From positions 1-58,974 of the forward strand of contig JAUYLV010000053.1 of assembly GCA_030699565.1 (NCBI GenBank): a stretch of 58,974 nucleotides of DNA, read 5' to 3'. Within the stretch, counting starts at the first letter, position 1. Every line of letters starts with the position of its first letter. Positions 5,548-52,108 of this stretch are shown here, one piece after another. The notes below the pieces were generated by a model. It was not told the DNA's origin. It saw only the letters and a list, made by a program, of their open reading frames with translations, and made no database searches. Source of the stretch: a bacterium (GTDB lineage: Bacteria; Patescibacteriota; Minisyncoccia; JAUYLV01). The position numbers and the translations under genes were made by a program.

Positions 5548-5575
5548 TACCCTATTACAGCCATGTAATAGGGTA
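5548..5575. repeat. 28-nt perfect hairpin element, copy 1
   Basis: TACCCTATTACA-GCCA-TGTAATAGGGTA. The exact reverse complement occurs at 52081-52108. Confidence 0.8.
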
Positions 5576-14567: not shown

Positions 14568-14694
14568 GATATGCACCCCTTTTTTTAAGAACCATGATGA
14601 AGATACCAAGGAATTAAAGGGCGGTCAAAGGATACATGCGAGGCGATTGCCTTTTGACGCATTACACGATTGCGGAACATAAAAACGCTCAATG

Positions 14695-15303
14695 TCACAT
14701 TGAGCGTTGGCGGCGGATTATTTCGGCGGCTTCCAAAAGATCTATGGCGCGCGCATCGGCGTACGTTGTGGTTTTTTGCGTCTCCCAAAAGGGTGGCTGG
14801 CGAAGCTGGATGCAGAACATCTGCGGATGGCGCAATTTCATCTTTTCGATCTCACGCGGGGCATCATCCAAAAAGAAGTCTTCGTTGGATGGCGCATCCA
14901 GAGAGTCCGCTTTGTGGCCGATGGTGACGTGGATTCGGCTGAAATAGGCATCCAGGTCATTCGCCTGGATCTTGAGCATCTGAAATTCGGGATCTCCGCT
15001 CGTCAGAATGGCGAGGATTGACCTGTCGAAGTTGAACAAAAAATCATGTACATCGGGGAAGACGATGCCGCCCTCTTCCGCGCATTCGATTATTTTATGG
15101 ACAAACGCTTCGCCGATAGTAAGATGTCGCGCAAGCACCGCATGATGGTTTTGGGGAGAATAATAGCCGAATTCTTTCATGACGATTCGGGCGGTTTCTT
15201 CGTAGAGCGCCTGCGGAACGCCAAGGGCTTCGGTCGCATCCTGCTGGCGTTTGGCCAGGCGGAGTGAATCAATGAGGACGTTATCAAGATCGCAATAGAT
15301 CAT
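14695..15303 (-). CDS. HAD-superfamily hydrolase
   Basis: 202 aa. Motif I MIYCDLDNVLIDS (DxD). Confidence 0.7.
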   Translation of the reverse strand: MIYCDLDNVLIDSLRLAKRQQDATEALGVPQALYEETARIVMKEFGYYSPQNHHAVLARHLTIGEAFVHKIIECAEEGGIVFPDVHDFLFNFDRSILAILTSGDPEFQMLKIQANDLDAYFSRIHVTIGHKADSLDAPSNEDFFLDDAPREIEKMKLRHPQMFCIQLRQPPFWETQKTTTYADARAIDLLEAAEIIRRQRSM

Positions 15304-15495: not shown

Positions 15496-16113
15496 ATGTC
15501 GAAACATCGAATTTTTATCGCCATTACCGTTCCCGAAAATGTCCGGCGCAGGCTTATGAAGGAAGTTGAGCCGTGGCGCGATTTGCCGATCCGGTGGGCG
15601 GCGCCTGCAAATATCCATGCGACGCTTCTTTTCATCGGCAATGTCGATGAGGATGAGTTGGCGCGCATCGCTTTGATGTTGCCGGGGGCGGTAGAGGGTG
15701 TTGAGATATTTGATGTCACATTGCATAAGATCGGTATCGGACCGAATGCGCGCATGCCGCGCATGGTATGGGCGGAAGGGGAAACGTCGCAAGAGCTTGT
15801 GGAACTCCAAAAGCGTATTCAGGAGGTTGTGGTAGGCGATCGGACCGTGTACGACGATGACGGCTTTCAAGATAGCGATGTCGAGGATCGCGGGTTGAAA
15901 GCAAAAAAAGGAATGTCCGGCGATAAATCGTTTCGCCTCCATGTTACGCTCGGACGGATGATACCGTTTAAGTGGCAAAAACTTGACCCAAAACCCGATA
16001 TCGGAAAAGACGCGCATATCTCATTTCCCATACGTTCCGTTGAACTCATGGAGAGCGATCTGGGGCCGGAGGGACCGGCATATACCATTCTGCAATCAAT
16101 ACCATTCGATTAG
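15496..16113 (+). CDS. thpR: RNA 2',3'-cyclic phosphodiesterase (2H phosphoesterase, LigT/ThpR)
   Basis: 205 aa. Two HxT motifs (IHATLLF and LHVTLGR). Confidence 0.8.
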   Translation: MSKHRIFIAITVPENVRRRLMKEVEPWRDLPIRWAAPANIHATLLFIGNVDEDELARIALMLPGAVEGVEIFDVTLHKIGIGPNARMPRMVWAEGETSQELVELQKRIQEVVVGDRTVYDDDGFQDSDVEDRGLKAKKGMSGDKSFRLHVTLGRMIPFKWQKLDPKPDIGKDAHISFPIRSVELMESDLGPEGPAYTILQSIPFD

Positions 16114-16115
16114 CT

Positions 16116-16350
16116 ATAAGGTCTGTTGCCGAATGTCAACCCGCTCCAACCACATCCTTTCGGGCTATATGCTCCGGTGGAGCATATAGCGGGAAGCTAC
16201 CATGTTTCTGAAATATGATACGGCTTCCCGGGATGCAAACCGCTCATCGCTCCTCAACATATTTTAGTCAAATATGCTTCGTCGCGCTTTGCGGACTCGC
16301 CCAAAAGGATGCGATTTGGCTACGAAAGCAAATTCAGTAACAGACCTTAT
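16116..16350. mobile_element. MITE-like element with 14-bp terminal inverted repeats
   Basis: ATAAGGTCTGTTGC (16116-16129) versus GTAACAGACCTTAT (16337-16350), 13/14 complementary. Interior has a perfect 12-bp hairpin GCTATATGCTCC-GGT-GGAGCATATAGC (16164-16190). Confidence 0.6.
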
Positions 16351-16354
16351 TATT

Positions 16355-17062
16355 ATGCGTTATTCCATTTGTTCCGTTCCCGTCGATGCGGCAACGAAAA
16401 AAGAAGCGCTCGAACGCTGCCGCGGATTTTTACGCGACGGCGCGCAGCATTATGTTGTCACGATCAATCCGGAGATTGCCGTTGAAGCGGAAAATAATAT
16501 TGCGTTCTACGATGTTCTTCGACGAAGCGATTTGGCGCTGGCGGATGGCGCGGGCATCGCGCTTGCGGCGCGATGGCTAGAGAGCGTTTCACTCGAGCGC
16601 ATAACGGGTGTCGATTTTATGCAGGATCTTTGCGCGCTCGCCCAGGACGAAGGCGCGAAGGTATTTTTTCTTGGCGGGAGGAAAGGTGTAGCCGCAAAGA
16701 CGGCCGAAGCGATGCAAAAGCGGTTTCCGCGGTTGCGCATCGCCGGATGGAGCGACGAGCCAGCTGGCGATCTTGCGATTCGGCATGTCGATGTGCTTTT
16801 TATCGCCTTCGGCGCGCCAAAGCAGGAGCTGTGGATCGCCGAAAACCTGCCGAAATTGCCCGAGATTAAAATAGCCATGGGGGTGGGAGGCGCTTTCGAC
16901 ATGATTTCGGAAAACAAAAAACGAGCTCCGCATATCATGCGAAAACTCGCTTTGGAATGGCTGTGGCGCCTCATACGGGAACCGTCGAGGATTCGCCGCA
17001 TGTTTCGCGCGCTTATCGTGTTTCCGTTGCTTGCGATCCGGTATCGTCGGGCAGCGCGGTGA
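16355..17062 (+). CDS. WecB/TagA/CpsF-family glycosyltransferase (GT26)
   Basis: Start chosen at MRYSICSVPVD, after the repeat element. Motif LFIAFGAPKQELWIAEN. Confidence 0.75.
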   Translation: MRYSICSVPVDAATKKEALERCRGFLRDGAQHYVVTINPEIAVEAENNIAFYDVLRRSDLALADGAGIALAARWLESVSLERITGVDFMQDLCALAQDEGAKVFFLGGRKGVAAKTAEAMQKRFPRLRIAGWSDEPAGDLAIRHVDVLFIAFGAPKQELWIAENLPKLPEIKIAMGVGGAFDMISENKKRAPHIMRKLALEWLWRLIREPSRIRRMFRALIVFPLLAIRYRRAAR

Positions 17063-21156: not shown

Positions 21157-21196
21157 GCAGCGGCTAACCTGCCATAGGCGGCAGGTTAGCCGCTGC
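21157..21196. other. 17-bp perfect hairpin between the cupredoxin and HMA genes
   Basis: GCAGCGGCTAACCTGCC-ATAGGC-GGCAGGTTAGCCGCTGC. No T-run follows. Confidence 0.8.
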
Positions 21197-25726: not shown

Positions 25727-25749
25727 AAGTTGACTAATTTAGTCAACTT
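25727..25749. promoter_or_regulatory. IscR-type operator O1 (perfect 11-1-11 palindrome) overlapping a TTGACT-17-GATAAT promoter
   Basis: AAGTTGACTAA-T-TTAGTCAACTT. -35 TTGACT at 25730-25735 and -10 GATAAT at 25753-25758. Confidence 0.65.
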
Positions 25750-25761
25750 TAAGATAATGGT

Positions 25762-25787
25762 GTCATTCCTGCCTTCGCGGGAATGAC
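25762..25787. repeat. GTCATTCC..GGAATGAC hairpin module
   Basis: GTCATTCCTGCCTTCGCGGGAATGAC, between operator O1 and the regulator ATG. Confidence 0.7.
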
Positions 25788-25824
25788 AAACGATACAGCA
25801 ATCCATTATCCTCACGCAGCAATC

Positions 25825-26280: not shown

Positions 26281-26309
26281 TCAAAGTTGACTAAATTAGT
26301 CAACTTTGA
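26281..26309. promoter_or_regulatory. IscR-type operator O2 (perfect 14-1-14 palindrome)
   Basis: TCAAAGTTGACTAA-A-TTAGTCAACTTTGA. It ends 27 nt upstream of the ATG at 26337. Confidence 0.65.
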
Positions 26310-27035: not shown

Positions 27036-27064
27036 TCAAAGTTGACCAAATTAGTCAACTTTGA
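27036..27064. promoter_or_regulatory. IscR-type operator O3 (14-1-14 palindrome, one mismatch)
   Basis: TCAAAGTTGACCAA-A-TTAGTCAACTTTGA. It ends 26 nt upstream of the sufC ATG and faces the divergent small membrane gene. Confidence 0.65.
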
Positions 27065-27886: not shown

Positions 27887-28026
27887 GTTGTCATCTCCGC
27901 GAAGGGTGAAATGCAATTGTCTTTGCATTTCACGGGCATCTTCCCCGCTTCTAATGAACGAATGACTACCCAGGAGGGGATTCAGATTAAATGTTTTATA
28001 TAGATTCCCGCTTTCGCGGGAATGAC
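27887..28026. repeat. Composite hairpin repeats in the sufC-sufB spacer
   Basis: GTCATCTCCGCGAAGG..., an 11-bp hairpin GTGAAATGCAA-TTGTCT-TTGCATTTCAC, and GATTCCCGCTTTCGCGGGAATGAC. Confidence 0.65.
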
Positions 28027-40991: not shown

Positions 40992-41172
40992 GGTGTAGCA
41001 TGATACAATCATCGTCGCCTCAACACCCCTTCTTTCAAAGCAGGGGAGTTTTACATCCCTCTCCTCTTCGAGGAGAGGTTAGGAGAGGTGTGTTGCGGTT
41101 TTTCAGCGAACCATGATAGGGTAACGTGTACTAATAGATCCTTTAAATTTTCAATACGAAAGAGTGGTTTCC

Positions 41173-42153
41173 ATGAAAAAGCACTTTCTGATTTTCCTGT
41201 TTTTTCTGATTTACGCTGCGGGCATGAATTCCGCGTACGCAAAGACATGCGATGCGGAACTTCCAGTAAATGATATTCGCGCCATGGTGGATATTTTGTC
41301 GCATCCGGCGCTAGGCGGTAGGGGAACGGAGCAGGTAGGATTCGATGTCGCGGGACTCATACTGGCGCGCGAGCTGCGCAATGTCGGTCTTCAGCCATTG
41401 CCCGGAATCGGCGGCTATATGCAGCCGTTCTCATTTTCTGATCACGGCCAAACGATTCGTTCGCGAAATATCATCGGTTATGCGCAAGGAATGATACCCG
41501 ACGAGTATATCATTATCGGCGCTCATTACGATCATGAAGGCATTAAAAACGGCAAAATGTATCCGGGCGCAGATGATAACGCATCGGGTACCGCAGGGGT
41601 GCTTGCCATCGCACAGCAGCTTGCCGCATGTGTTGCCTCGGGGAGAAAACTCAATCGGAGTGTTATTATTGGGTTTTGGGGCGCAGAGGAGTGGGGTCTT
41701 CACGGCTCGGCCTATTTTGTCAAAAGCGGCATTGTACCGCTTGACCAGATCGTTGCCGTGCTGAACCTCGATATGATCGGGCGCAATGATCCGCAAGCGC
41801 TTTCTGCCATCGGTACGGAGTATCCGCCGGAATTTCCGCAAAAGAGTCCGTTGCTCGAAAAAATATTACGCGATGAGAACGCGAAGCTGGATGAGCCGTT
41901 TACGATCGAATACTCGGCACAAGATATGGGGTATTTTTCCGCAACAGATAGTTATTCGTTTTTCGAGGCAAGCCCGTCTCATCGACGGATCCCCATCTTA
42001 TTTTTGACGTCGGGCGCTCATGCGGATTATCACCGGCCAACAGATACCGCCGACAAGATTGATGTAGAAAAGCTGCAAAATGTCGCTCGGCTTATGTACC
42101 GGGTCGCCATGCGCGTCATAACAAGTCCGGTCTGGCCCGTCTATTTACCATAG
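41173..42153 (+). CDS. Secreted M28-family aminopeptidase
   Basis: Signal peptide MKKHFLIFLFFLIYAAGMNSAYA. Motifs GAHYDH, GADDNASG and GAEEWGLHGS. Confidence 0.8.
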   Translation: MKKHFLIFLFFLIYAAGMNSAYAKTCDAELPVNDIRAMVDILSHPALGGRGTEQVGFDVAGLILARELRNVGLQPLPGIGGYMQPFSFSDHGQTIRSRNIIGYAQGMIPDEYIIIGAHYDHEGIKNGKMYPGADDNASGTAGVLAIAQQLAACVASGRKLNRSVIIGFWGAEEWGLHGSAYFVKSGIVPLDQIVAVLNLDMIGRNDPQALSAIGTEYPPEFPQKSPLLEKILRDENAKLDEPFTIEYSAQDMGYFSATDSYSFFEASPSHRRIPILFLTSGAHADYHRPTDTADKIDVEKLQNVARLMYRVAMRVITSPVWPVYLP

Positions 42154-42166
42154 GCAAGTGATGAAG

Positions 42167-42190
42167 CCCTCGAATTGACGAGGGTTTTTT
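42167..42190 (+). terminator. Intrinsic terminator
   Basis: CCCTCG-AATTGA-CGAGGG followed by TTTTTT. Confidence 0.7.
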
Positions 42191-42252
42191 ACATGGTCAA
42201 GCCATGTTGATATGTAGCGGAAATTCGGATAGAATTAATGGCGTCGCTTTTT

Positions 42253-42370
42253 GGGCCGCCAGCTCAATTGGGCAGATGCTCTGGGAGAGCATCTGCGGGT
42301 AGTTCAATGAAGTTTAATTTCGACTACCCCGGATAGAGCACCCGCCTTGTTCACCCCGTTACAAATTTAT
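42253..42370 (+). pseudogene. tRNA-Ala-derived partial copy 1 with a ~62-nt D-loop insertion
   Basis: GGGCCGCCAGCTCAATTGG + hairpin 42272-42296 + GGGTAGT..ACTACCC stem + TAGAGCACCCGCCTTG. It then diverges at the anticodon, with no T-arm or 3' acceptor. Confidence 0.6.
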
Positions 42371-42600
42371 GGGCCCGTAGCTCAATTGGGCGAGTCCTCT
42401 GGGAGAGGACTCGCGGGCAGTTCCTTTTGATTCATCAGAATGGGCCGGTAGCTCAATTGGCTAGAGCACCCGCCTTGCACGCGGGAGGTTGCGGGTTCAA
42501 GCCCCGCCCGGTCCACTGGCCCGTTCTGATAAATTTATATCGACTACCCGGGATAGAGCACCCGCCTTGCACGCGGGAGGTTGGGATTCTGAACCGAATC
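42371..42600 (+). pseudogene. tRNA-Ala-derived partial copy 2, interrupted by the intact tRNA
   Basis: GGGCCCGTAGCTCAATTGG + hairpin 42390-42414 ... [tRNA 42442-42515] ... CGACTACCCGGGATAGAGCACCCGCCTTGCACGCGGGAGGTT. An aberrant T-arm follows and there is no 3' acceptor strand. Confidence 0.55.
42442..42515 (+). tRNA. tRNA-Ala (anticodon UGC)
   Basis: Hand-folded cloverleaf. Acceptor GGGCCGG/CCGGTCC with G3:U70, D-arm GCTC..GAGC, anticodon arm CCCGC-CTTGCAC-GCGGG, T-arm GCGGG-TTCAAGC-CCCGC, discriminator A. CCA is not encoded. Confidence 0.9.
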
Positions 42601-42639
42601 ATGGATTTTGACATCCTTACAAACTTGAGAATGTGAGGA

Positions 42640-43107
42640 TGTTATTGGAGGTTATCTTTGAAAACACGTGCCGCATTCAAGGTTCTGCGCCAAGACCTTA
42701 CTTCGGTCGGCTTGCTTGGCGCTCCGCGCAAACGATACCATTTTGATATCTGGAATAGGCCGGATGAGCCGATCTCCCGTCATCCGCGAAAAGGGTGAAA
42801 TTCTCCAGTGGAGAATTTCACGGGCGAGTACGATGTTTCCAATTAATGAAGGCTCGCCCAGGGGGAGGGACTGTGGGTTGCGCCAACGCTGGCGGATGCA
42901 CGGTCGCTGCAGCGATATGCGTTAATGAAGCACGGCATCAAAACGCGGATATTCCGGAGCCGTATTGGCAGAGTGCTTCACCGTACGTCTTGCAGGGTCA
43001 AGACCGATGGAGTTTATTTTACGAAGAGCGACGAGGTGTGCATTTACACCTCCCCCGCGTCAAACGCGGCTTCGCAAGCCCCCTCAATGAGGAGGGGATG
43101 TCCGGTG
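42640..43107. other. Hairpin-dense non-coding region (structured RNA or stacked palindromic units)
   Basis: No credible ORF on either strand. Stems include 42687-42722 (8 bp), 42761-42786 (7 bp), 42795-42821 (12 bp perfect), 42822-42859 (7 bp), 43033-43052 and 43055-43069. Confidence 0.5.
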
Positions 43108-43111
43108 AAAT

Positions 43112-43147
43112 CAAAAACCTCAACGATTGTACGTTGAGGTGTTTTTT
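43112..43147. terminator. Bidirectional intrinsic terminator
   Basis: ACCTCAACG-ATTGTA-CGTTGAGGT flanked by AAAAA and TTTTTT. It overlaps the stop of the minus-strand DUF1653 gene. Confidence 0.75.
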
Positions 43148-43391
43148 AGATTGCAATGACGAATGTGAAGCGCGGCCCTAGGTATCCGTCACGATCAACG
43201 CGCTCGGTGAACATGGACAAAGGCCTTATCAGGAATTCATGATCCGAATAATACAGCCTGGCCGGCCGATATACGACCATTTTTTCCTGCGTTTCGGTGT
43301 GGGTGGCTATGCCGATAACCTCATACAGGTTGCCTTCGAAGTGCCGCCAAATGCCGGGCTTGATATCGGCTGCTTGAGCCTTCGCCATCAA
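43146..43391 (-). CDS. DUF1653-domain protein
   Basis: 81 aa. WRHFEGNLYEVIGIATHTETQEKMVVYR...IRPLSMF matches my recollection of DUF1653. Overlaps the guaB stop. Confidence 0.65.
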   Translation of the reverse strand: MMAKAQAADIKPGIWRHFEGNLYEVIGIATHTETQEKMVVYRPARLYYSDHEFLIRPLSMFTERVDRDGYLGPRFTFVIAI

Positions 43392-44902
43392 TTTTCCTCC
43401 TTCGGAGTGATCCGGTAATTTGGCGGCTCTTTGGTGATGATCACATCGTGTGGATGCGATTCCTGCATGTCGACCGGCGAACAGAAGTCGGCCTTTTCCT
43501 TCAACTCCTTAATGGTCGCGGCCCCCACGTATCCCATACCTTTGCGCAATCCCCCCAAAAGTTGAATCAGCACTTCACGAATCTCGTCCTTATAAGGAAC
43601 CATGCCTTCTACGCCTTCGGGTACGATCCTGTCCTTGGGCTGCGGCTCTTTCTGTCCGTAACGGTCGTTGCTTAGGTTGCTTTGCAGCGCGCCTATCGAG
43701 CCCATTCCCCGGTAAGATTTATAGCGCATGCCCCGATAGGTGGTAATCTCTCCCGGCGCTTCTTTTGTTCCGGCAAGTAGGTTTCCCAACATGACCGAGT
43801 CCGCACCCGCACCTATCGCAATGGGAATATCGCCCGAATGCCGTATGCCGCCATCGGCGATGAGTGGGACGCCGGATCCGCGGATCGCTTTCTCACACTG
43901 GTAAATTGCGGTCACTTGTGGGCAGCCGATTCCGGCGATGACCCGGGTGGTGCAGATCGAACCGGGGCCTTGGCCGATCTTTATGGCGTCGGCACCCGCG
44001 TCGACAAGCCGCCGGGCCGATGCTCCTTCCGAAACGTTTCCTACGACAACGTCGAGATCCGGATAGTGCCTTTTGATCTCGCGCAAAGTTTCATGCACGG
44101 ACCTTGAATCGCCGTGGGCTGTATCGATGCAGACGGCATCAATCTTTTTGCGGGCCAGAAGCTCGACCCGCTCAAGAGCCTTGTCTCCCACGCCGATGGC
44201 CGCACCCACGCGCAGATTGCCGTTTTTGTCGACGTTGTGCGGGAGTCCGCTTCCGGTCTTTATGCGAAGCACATCTTGCCAGACATACATGCCGCAAAGC
44301 CTGCCATTGTCGTCGATGAGCGGCAGCACTTTCTTCTTGCTTCTGCGCATGAGGTTGTATGCCTCATCAATGGTTGTTTCGCACCGGGCGGTTACCAGTT
44401 CCCGCGACATGACTTCGGAGACGACGAGCGAAGGGTCAGTGCAAAATTCAAAATCTGTTTTTGTGAGCATGCCCGCGAGTTTTTCATCGCCGTCCAGCAC
44501 CGGAAACGTATCGAATGCAAACTTCTTTTCTCTGATATACGCAAGCACCCGCTCGATTGTGTCGGTGGTTTTGACGGTTCGTGGGCGATCAATGCGGCCG
44601 TTCAGATGCAACTTCACTTGGGCAACCTGAAAGGCCTGTTCTTCCGGTGGAAGATTACGGTGGATGAATCCGATGCCGCCCCATTTCGCTATTTCGATGG
44701 CAAGGCGGTATTCGGTAACAGTGTCCATCGCTGCACTTACGATAGGGGAACGCAGCGGAATATTGCGCGAAAGCCGTGTATGCAGTGAAACATCATCCGG
44801 CATCACTTCCGAGTACCCGGTTTTGAGCCGTACGTGATCGAATGAAACCGCCTTACCCAATGCATCCATTTTTTCAAAGAACGCGTCTTTGCGTAGCGTC
44901 AC
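43388..44902 (-). CDS. guaB: IMP dehydrogenase
   Basis: 504 aa. Catalytic loop [11 protein letters not shown], a CBS pair, and GGIRHSGDI. Confidence 0.9.
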
Positions 44903-51532: not shown

Positions 51533-51562
51533 AATAGACCGCCAGAGAACTGGCGGTCTATT
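51533..51562. terminator. Bidirectional terminator
   Basis: 13-bp perfect stem AATAGACCGCCAG-AGAA-CTGGCGGTCTATT between convergent genes. Confidence 0.7.
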
Positions 51563-52080: not shown

Positions 52081-52108
52081 TACCCTATTACATGGCTGTA
52101 ATAGGGTA
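52081..52108. repeat. 28-nt perfect hairpin element, copy 2 (reverse complement of 5548-5575)
   Basis: TACCCTATTACA-TGGC-TGTAATAGGGTA. Confidence 0.8.

Follow-up and report, generated by a model that had tools for sequence, protein, structure and literature searches.

At positions 42253 to 42583 of a bacterial contig (JAUYLV010000053.1, 58,974 nt; this whole stretch is called the window below), an intact tRNA-Ala gene lies among two units that begin like tRNA-Ala genes and carry an insertion in the D-loop, which raises the question of what these outer units are, and whether the likeness to intron-bearing or split tRNA genes on which a first-pass annotation of the sequence had remarked goes beyond appearance. 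We find that the outer units are dead tRNA relics and that their insertions are copies of a two-hairpin repeat, here called X, which also occurs outside tRNA genes. The explanation we favour, with confidence and doubt about evenly balanced, is that X is a family of small dispersed hairpin repeats behaving as non-autonomous mobile DNA of the kind represented by repetitive extragenic palindromes (REPs), REP doublets forming hairpins (REPINs) and miniature inverted-repeat transposable elements (MITEs).

One functional tRNA-Ala gene and two tRNA-Ala relics

Across the entire window, ARAGORN and Rfam recognise just one tRNA, a tRNA-Ala(UGC), which is the sole functional tRNA of the locus (coordinates of this and all other features are given in Table 1). 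As the first-pass annotation had stated, it lies in the second-stem loop of the downstream outer unit and is bracketed by a short inverted repeat, the ends of this cargo pairing with each other (ATCAGAA at 42434-42440 with TTCTGAT at 42524-42530); the near-repeats TTTTGAT (42425-42431) and TTCTGAT (42524-42530) also bracket it. The two tRNA-Ala-like 5' units with a D-loop insertion are likewise present as described. The first of them, a1, covers the 5' strand of the acceptor stem, the 5' strand of the D-stem and the D-loop through G18G19, and in both units the interruption falls right after G18G19. The tRNA sequence resumes at 42334 and 42554, and not at 42335 and 42555 as first annotated. The resumed part of the first unit, b1, consists of the D-stem 3' strand and the anticodon stem 5' strand, its homology ending within the anticodon loop, and that of the second, b2, consists of the D-stem 3' strand, the complete anticodon arm and the variable loop, after which homology ends abruptly; the b2 region belongs to a repeat family with 97% identity over 33 nt. 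The window contains the motif CTCTGGGAGAG exactly two times and the junction motif TCGACTACCCNGGATAGAGC also two times, the latter against 0.02 expected, a recurrence that is not chance.

Neither unit continues into a T-arm or a 3' acceptor strand, the sequence after 42349 and 42583 being unrelated to tRNA; the first-pass annotation had already seen that the acceptor strand is missing, and the T-arm is missing too. No T-arm-like or acceptor-like 3' half matching a1 or a2 was found in the 59-kb window. ARAGORN called no tRNA on six outer copies spliced in silico, with or without a filler base and at a relaxed threshold, and in intron mode it called only the inner tRNA-Ala on the plus strand. 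Because they lack the T-arm and the 3' acceptor strand and give no tRNA after in-silico splicing, the outer copies are truncated, dead tRNA-Ala relics and not functional tRNAs, and the window does not support reading them as intron-bearing or split ones. By inspection, no 3-4-3 bulge-helix-bulge could be drawn at 42271/42272, at 42333/42334 or at the junctions of the second copy, and in 42100-43400 and 16050-16330 no intron or ribozyme family of Rfam gave a match at E ≤ 10. The catalytic core of group I and group II introns (P3-P9 or domains I-VI) is typically longer than 200 nt; a self-splicing intron of either group was rejected, the insert in the first copy being only 62 nt long and Rfam giving no such match.

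The first-pass annotation had kept misassembly in view. An assembly error is an unlikely source of the arrangement, because run SRR13727534, assembled independently in Logan (L003), gives a sequence 100% identical across 41001-44000 and the internal repeats at the locus do not exceed 33 nt.

X is a dispersed two-hairpin repeat

X is a repeat of ~65-75 nt of which six copies are known, five in the window (X1, X2 and X4 to X6) and one (X3) in the metagenome contig L013. Its layout is GG, then a first stem, P1, which is perfect over 11-12 bp and has a 3-6-nt loop, directly followed by a second, P2, a 7-bp stem of the form GGGnnnn/nnnnCCC around an AT-rich loop of 19-25 nt, and finally a tail nGGA; a short local helix often closes the module. 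In X1, the insertion of the first outer unit, the P1 hairpin (42272-42296) has 11 bp and is perfect, P2 (GGGTAGT/ACTACCC, 42297-42329) encloses an AT-rich loop of 19 nt, and the tail is CGGA. X2, in the second unit, has a perfect 11-bp P1 at 42390-42414 and the P2 5' strand GGGCAGT at 42415-42421, after which the P2 loop begins. The 11-bp arms with a GGG loop at these two places are the same structure as the 10 bp with a TGGGA loop of the first-pass annotation, whose second stem stands as described in X1 but holds one C·A mismatch in X2 (GGGCAGT/ACTACCC).

A covariance model of the insert, already envisaged in the first-pass annotation, was built in two versions and finds three further copies in the window. 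Model R1 was built from the three tRNA-embedded copies (X1, X2 and X3) only, whereas the second model, R2, has X5 among its building copies and leaves X6 out. X4 has a 12-bp P1 (GCTATATGCTCC-GGT-GGAGCATATAGC), P2 GGGAAGC/GCTTCCC, the tail GGGA and a closing helix CATCC/GGATG, and sits between a LigT-like open reading frame (ORF; 15496-16113) and a WecG/TagA-family ORF (16274-17062). X5, which lies past the tRNA cluster in a stretch without genes, has P1 GTGAAATTCTCC-AGT-GGAGAATTTCAC, P2 GGGCGAG/CTCGCCC and the tail AGGG. X6, between a sufC-like ABC ATPase ORF and sufB, has P1 GTGAAATGCAA-TTGTCT-TTGCATTTCAC and a decayed P2 pairing, its P2 3' strand and tail (GACTACCCAGGA) matching those of X1-X3. 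All five window copies lie on the plus strand, at a density of ~1 per 12 kb (five in 59 kb), and X4, X5 and X6 are intergenic, none of them in a tRNA. X is a dispersed family and is not tRNA-specific. The LigT-like 2H phosphoesterase ORF ('2'-5' RNA ligase' family, plus strand) ends 47 nt upstream of X4; as a link to the ligation of tRNA halves, this adjacency is probably coincidence.

Table 1 Features of the tRNA-Ala locus and copies of X in the window
Feature	Coordinates	Strand	Basis and remarks
Candidate promoter, TTGATA-17-TAGAAT	42207..42235	+	consensus match only; ~17 nt upstream of copy 1
a1, tRNA-Ala positions 1-19, GGGCCGCCAGCTCAATTGG	42253-42271	+	2 differences from intact gene
X1, 'empty' copy	42272..42333	+	R1 89.3 bits; insert 62 nt
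b1, tRNA-Ala positions ~20a-35	42334..42349	+	16/16 identity to intact gene
a2, tRNA-Ala positions 1-19, GGGCCCGTAGCTCAATTGG	42371-42389	+	1 difference from intact gene
X2, left part	42390..42433	+	R1 48.7 bits
Cargo in P2 loop of X2, tRNA-Ala(UGC) with short leader and trailer	42434..42530	+	ARAGORN, Rfam, inverted repeat
Intact tRNA-Ala(UGC)	42442-42516	+	ARAGORN; Rfam tRNA 70.1 bits, full model length, 42442-42515
X2, right part	42531..42553	+	P2 loop end, P2 3' strand ACTACCC 42543-42549, tail GGGA
b2, tRNA-Ala positions ~20a-48	42554..42583	+	30/30 identity to intact gene
X5, divergent	42791..42864	+	R1 25.3 bits, filters off; R2 60.3 bits, but X5 used in building R2
X4	16160..16234	+	R1 (built without X4) 42.8 bits, E ~1e-9
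X6, degenerate	27902..27976	+	R2 (built without X6) 26.7 bits, E 2e-4

Both helices of X covary

The first-pass annotation had reported that the hairpins of the two outer units differ at four stem positions, each change being compensated on the other arm, and this is so for all four. We extended the comparison to five hand-registered copies (the sixth was left out, loops were partly masked, and N marks the extra pair of X4 and X5). Of the 19 pairs of P1 and P2, 11 have changed in both partners, accounting for 18 cells, and pairing holds in 98.9% of cells, figures that come from few and related sequences and from a structure derived from these same sequences. None of 500 shuffles reached the observed percentage paired, number of double changes or covariation score, and slid registers were 35-52% paired. 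There are no one-sided changes in the 19 pairs and no G·U among the ~91-100 paired cells. All six copies have a perfectly palindromic P1, the additional base pair in X4 and X5 has its partner on the opposite arm, and P2 covaries too, though its arms lie 19-25 nt or more apart. Folded as a three-way junction, X1 (closed by the D-stem), X4 and X5 reach z-scores of -5.95, -6.08 and -3.59, and while the stems vary, the junction and apex nucleotides GG, CTCY/RGAG, C-GGG and CCC-nGGA are conserved.

These data support the conclusion that the hairpins of X are under constraint to stay paired. The earlier argument for selection on RNA structure therefore stands as far as pairing is concerned, but is less likely to hold in its choice of the molecule: because G·U pairs are completely absent, the constraint would seem to act on DNA rather than on RNA, and together with the perfect P1 this absence appears to fit a folded DNA single strand, or palindrome correction, better than selection at the RNA level.

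X in a tRNA-Ser relic of a metagenome contig

A strict pattern of the hairpin plus the start of the second stem matched one contig in a metagenome scan, L013, whose minus strand carries X3 (GCGTATGCTC-TGGGA-GAGCATACGC GGGTAGT ... ACTACCC GGGA). Over 45 nt, X3 and X1 have 88.9% identity, and another two pairs are compensated; the two copies share loop sequence, X1 being nearer to X3 than to its own neighbour copies. The flanks of X3 are tRNA-Ser-like: when the module is replaced by one base, they align contiguously, at 86-91%, to annotated phage tRNA-Ser genes. Because they do so across the junction, X3 occupies the same D-loop position, after G18G19, in another tRNA type, and this module in a tRNA-Ser relic is a homologous arrangement elsewhere, on which the first-pass annotation had made its interpretation depend. 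The relic has no proper T-stem and acceptor strands, and all three host tRNAs of X (two Ala, one Ser) lack their 3' parts.

The P2 loop of X3 is split by a ~1.1-kb IS5-family insertion sequence (IS) at 159-1431 of the contig, on the minus strand, with a 317-aa transposase (DDE_Tnp_1 and DUF772), terminal inverted repeats of 18-19 bp and a TTAA duplication. The P2 loop is permissive for large inserts, holding none in X1, a tRNA-Ala gene in X2 and an IS5 element here. Beside the relic lie a tRNA 3' end upstream and an AT-rich ORF downstream, and no homologues were found for this downstream ORF fragment.

X as a candidate mobile hairpin repeat

From the perfect pairing, the dispersal and the recurrent tRNA position we infer mobility, a single-stranded DNA intermediate and the following order of events. 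X would propagate via a folded single-stranded DNA intermediate, and its hairpins would stay perfectly paired despite sequence drift because X, on this proposal, moves as a folded single strand. The subfamily of X1, X2 and X3 would have landed repeatedly in tRNA genes at the same point, immediately behind G18G19 in the D-loop, where insertion would destroy the host tRNA. At the tRNA-Ala locus, one promoter would then drive one functional tRNA-Ala amid two X-disrupted, 3'-truncated pseudogene fragments, which would be transcribed only as leader and trailer, and RNase P together with 3' processing would release a single mature tRNA-Ala. X works like an element of the REP/REPIN kind, but we do not file it as a member of that family because it has no GTAG head, has a second, unlike stem and comes with no transposase in the window.

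Several observations weigh against mobility. No transposase, RAYT or recombinase gene was seen among the ~40 larger window ORFs scanned; X has no terminal inverted repeats, its ends being GC... and ...nGGA; and no clear target-site duplication is seen, since the GG found on either side is ambiguous and looks like part of X, with A following it in five of six copies. The GTAG head that defines REPs is missing 5' of P1. The copies in one genome are very divergent and so do not stem from a recent burst. All five window copies share the direction of flanking transcription, which fits a role as RNA equally well, and the exact D-loop position common to the Ala and Ser hosts could mean function and not targeting. 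A mobile repeat also leaves the intact tRNA gene within the X2 loop unexplained, and the tRNA-derived flanks show 3 differences in 84 nt from the live gene whereas X1 and X2 differ by ~20%. Finally, only six copies are known, from two contigs, and pattern searches of 185,579 species genomes and a viral collection did not find the hairpin: the strict pattern gave four matches in the species genomes, all of them non-palindromic chance matches with no tRNA nearby, and zero in viral contigs, where a looser pattern gave six chance matches. The host genome itself is absent from the species representatives searched.

Alternative explanations

The main rival, which we consider possible but rather improbable, holds that X acts in cis as a structured RNA module in which a closing helix, P1 and P2 meet in a three-way junction. 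It would work inside transcripts, perhaps in their processing or stability or in the binding of a protein. Where X is embedded in a tRNA, the D-stem would serve as the closing helix, and the extra domain would be sterically tolerated at D-loop position 20 because this position is solvent-exposed. Such a role agrees with the sense orientation of all five window copies to their neighbouring genes, with the location of X4, X5 and X6 at 40-66 nt upstream of the next start codon (X6 inside the suf operon), with stems that vary around conserved junction and apex nucleotides, and with the folding of X1, X4 and X5 each as a closed three-way junction (z of -6.0, -6.1 and -3.6); moreover, the P2 loops of X1 and X3 begin with TTCAAT, which is T-loop-like, beside the GGG loop. 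It is harder to reconcile with the lack of G·U pairs in the aligned cells, which is unusual for selected RNA helices, with a P2 loop that accommodates a 1.1-kb IS and a whole tRNA gene, and with neighbour genes that are functionally unrelated (a glycosyltransferase, sufB, a tRNA, a small ORF). The tRNAs that harbour X are all broken, P2 has decayed in X6, and Rfam offers no match.

Two further readings give the tRNA inside X2 a purpose, and we judge both unlikely. In the first, X is a structure-guided mobile module that homes to D-loop nucleotide 20 of different tRNAs in different organisms and carries cargo in its P2 loop, including a replacement tRNA; we keep it in view because the tRNA in the X2 loop, the site shared by Ala and Ser hosts, the missing 3' parts, the contrast in divergence between flanks and X and the closeness of X1 to X3 otherwise go unexplained. 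The second, to which we give slightly less credence still, takes X as the paired ends of a miniature integrative or cargo element homing to the tRNA D-loop, with the cargo between the P2 strands; X2 would carry a replacement tRNA-Ala that makes disruption of the target cost-free, and the empty copies would be deletion derivatives. The cargo is indeed of the same type as the gene disrupted by X2, the insertion point is identical in two tRNA types and two organisms, and the near-repeats TTTTGAT and TTCTGAT surround the cargo. Yet the empty form is commoner and conserved, X1 and X3 sharing loop sequence, and the L013 copy holds no tRNA-Ser, its sole insert being an IS with its own duplication; X4-X6 lie outside tRNAs, and no recombinase gene is nearby.

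Less probable again is that the locus shows nothing but the scars of local duplication and deletion in a tRNA-Ala tandem array, with hairpins kept perfect by intrastrand template switching (palindrome correction) and with neither an element family nor a function behind them. The window does hold 16 perfect palindromes of several kinds with arms of at least 10 nt against 0.23 expected, and template switching would yield 'compensated' changes and no G·T pairs without selection, but the same architecture and junction bases recur at three unlinked intergenic sites and in the tRNA-Ser relic of another organism, and P2 covaries despite the distance between its arms. A tandem duplication of the whole unit of a, X, b and tail was also considered; it rests on a 19-nt, 74% match alone and is not relied on.

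It is barely credible that the outer units represent split tRNA genes or ones with an intron, the insert being removed or the halves joined at the RNA level: the insert does sit in a loop closable by the flanking D-stem, non-canonical D-loop introns and permuted or split tRNAs are known in archaea and a red alga (PMC4090602, PMC3978253) and a LigT-like '2'-5' RNA ligase' ORF adjoins X4, but the genome is bacterial, removal of the insert still leaves no T-arm or 3' acceptor strand, the window holds no complementary 3' half, no bulge-helix-bulge can be drawn, ARAGORN in intron mode calls nothing but the inner tRNA-Ala on this strand, Rfam finds no intron, and the same module stands outside tRNAs in three intergenic regions, so that the likeness drawn in the first-pass annotation is not supported.

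Comparison with known systems

Like REPs and REPINs, which are often transcribed within operons, X is a short, extragenic, multi-copy hairpin repeat with compensatory changes. Group 3 REPs are described as perfect palindromes with a 3-nt interruption, and in some REP families the interruption is 3-4 nt (PMC8266576); compensatory hairpin changes are common in REPINs, and a single-stranded intermediate has been proposed for these (PMC3116915). X differs from REPs in having GG before P1 and GGG after it in place of a GTAG head: the bases 5' of P1 in the six copies are TTGG, TTGG, GTGG, TCGG, AAGG and AAGG, and on the other strand CCC precedes P1. It differs further in a second, unlike stem-loop instead of the inverted REP doublet of REPINs, in the far greater divergence of copies within one genome, in insertion inside tRNA coding sequence, and in that no gene for RAYT, the Y1 transposase, was seen in the window.

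Other systems share single traits with X. Rickettsia palindromic elements are selfish palindromes of ~100-150 bp found within genes, RNA genes included; they are confined to the Rickettsia lineage, and the gene that they enter usually remains functional. X resembles them as a small palindromic repeat at structurally tolerated gene positions, but its host tRNAs are truncated and dead. The intervening sequences of bacterial 23S rRNA are sporadic stem-loops at helix tips, of variable sequence and conserved hairpin, which RNase III excises and which leave the rRNA functional; the host tRNA copies of X are incomplete. Genomic islands and phages with tRNA-targeting tyrosine integrases resemble X in landing recurrently in tRNA genes and in leaving partial tRNA copies beside an intact gene, but they duplicate the 3' part of the tRNA, with the crossover at the anticodon loop, the T-loop or the 3' end, whereas the X locus shows 5' parts and the D-loop; they are also kilobases long and carry an integrase, against an insert of 62 nt in X1. 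Non-canonical introns and split or permuted tRNAs of archaea and eukaryotes likewise show a D-loop insert closed by a helix (PMC4090602, PMC3978253). These depend on a bulge-helix-bulge and EndA and give a complete tRNA; X has a bacterial host, no such motif and incomplete exons.

Assignment to several named families was rejected. A MITE in the strict sense is excluded by the missing terminal inverted repeats and the lack of a clear target-site duplication, and a palindrome-associated element derived from IS200/IS605 by the dissimilarity of P1 and P2 and by a P1 that begins at the very flank junction. X is no integron attC site, as it has no R''/L''...L'/R' boxes (RYYYAAC...GTTRRRY), forms two separate perfect helices and belongs to no cassette array. 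Sequence inspection together with the lack of an Rfam match at E ≤ 10 also argued against hammerhead and other small ribozymes, a T-box, a Y-RNA-like tRNA mimic, a retron, attC, a dif/Xer site, an oriT-like hairpin and a CRISPR or omega-RNA guide, and the window contains no partner gene for the rejected families. In an Rfam 15 covariance search of the whole window only tRNA reached the gathering threshold, and at E ≤ 10 nothing credible appeared around X1, X2, X5 or X4. A D-loop-gap pattern matched in viral contigs only a tightly packed phage tRNA array, a pattern artefact, and BLAST of the first copy against phages and plasmids gave tRNA-fragment or chance matches only. Full-text searches of the literature brought up no bacterial element described as inserting in the D-loop. 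Found neither in Rfam 15 nor in these searches, the X family appears to be new.

Genomic context and host

The tRNA-Ala locus is chromosomal. Upstream lie nuoD and nuoH and then an M28 peptidase gene, which by our reading of 41900-43000 has a terminator-like hairpin followed by a T-run; 3' of the tRNA cluster, ~550 nt without a called gene precede DUF1653 and IMPDH genes on the opposite strand. The candidate promoter, judged from its consensus match, likely drives the whole tRNA-Ala transcript. The motif (C)CATKTTGAYAT, which contains TTGAYA, recurs at 42202, 42603 and 42738. The interval 42584-43146, without a called gene in the Logan annotation, holds X5, a bidirectional terminator-like hairpin (43117-43140) and an unannotated 70-aa ORF (42925-43137) that matches nothing in Pfam.

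Since the window encodes MurA, MurC, MreB, PriA, Fmt and SufB, the host is a bacterium. Its lineage is very isolated and very poorly sampled: the best non-self matches are at 58% identity for the M28 peptidase and 61% for IMPDH, no IMPDH relatives above 61% identity were found, and a cluster look-up found no other strain. The closest homologues of IMPDH (43388-44902, minus strand; ~60% identity) come from Patescibacteria and DPANN archaea, and the M28 peptidase points to other uncultivated bacteria. Neither the tRNA-Ala locus nor X was present on the contigs of the five closest M28 peptidase homologues (49-58% identity).

Other palindromes in the window

The 16 perfect hairpins with arms of at least 10 nt, whose expected number of 0.23 comes from block shuffles, include the copies of X; other examples lie at 5548-5575, 52081-52108, 21157-21196 (with 17-bp arms), 51533-51562 and 14684-14708. 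A second repeat besides X, TACCCTATTACA-NNNN-TGTAATAGGGTA, has two copies in opposite orientations. Three palindromes at 25727-25749, 26281-26309 and 27036-27064, upstream of or within the suf region, have common arms, (TCA)AAGTTGAC...GTCAACTT(TGA), and because these arms are conserved they look like regulator operator sites and not like covarying hairpins. A small hairpin, ATTCCyGCyTTCGCGGGAATGACA, occurs twice, at ~25765-25790 and ~27995-28020, one copy lying just downstream of X6 and upstream of sufB.

Implications

What looks like a cluster of 'intron-bearing' tRNA genes in an uncultivated bacterium is one live tRNA gene among relics broken by a hairpin repeat, and such relics can mislead the annotation of tRNAs and introns in metagenome-assembled genomes. 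X stands out by the clean covariation of two helices, by its occurrence at one structural position in two tRNAs and two genetic backgrounds, and by a second loop that accepts inserts. If X does home to the D-loop, bacteria would have in it a counterpart of tRNA-targeted insertion, with built-in compensation of the damage. If X is mobile, it would add a member that seeks the tRNA D-loop to the world of REPs and MITEs, and it would serve as a marker for a lineage that has been sampled very poorly and finds its best protein matches at only 58-61% identity.

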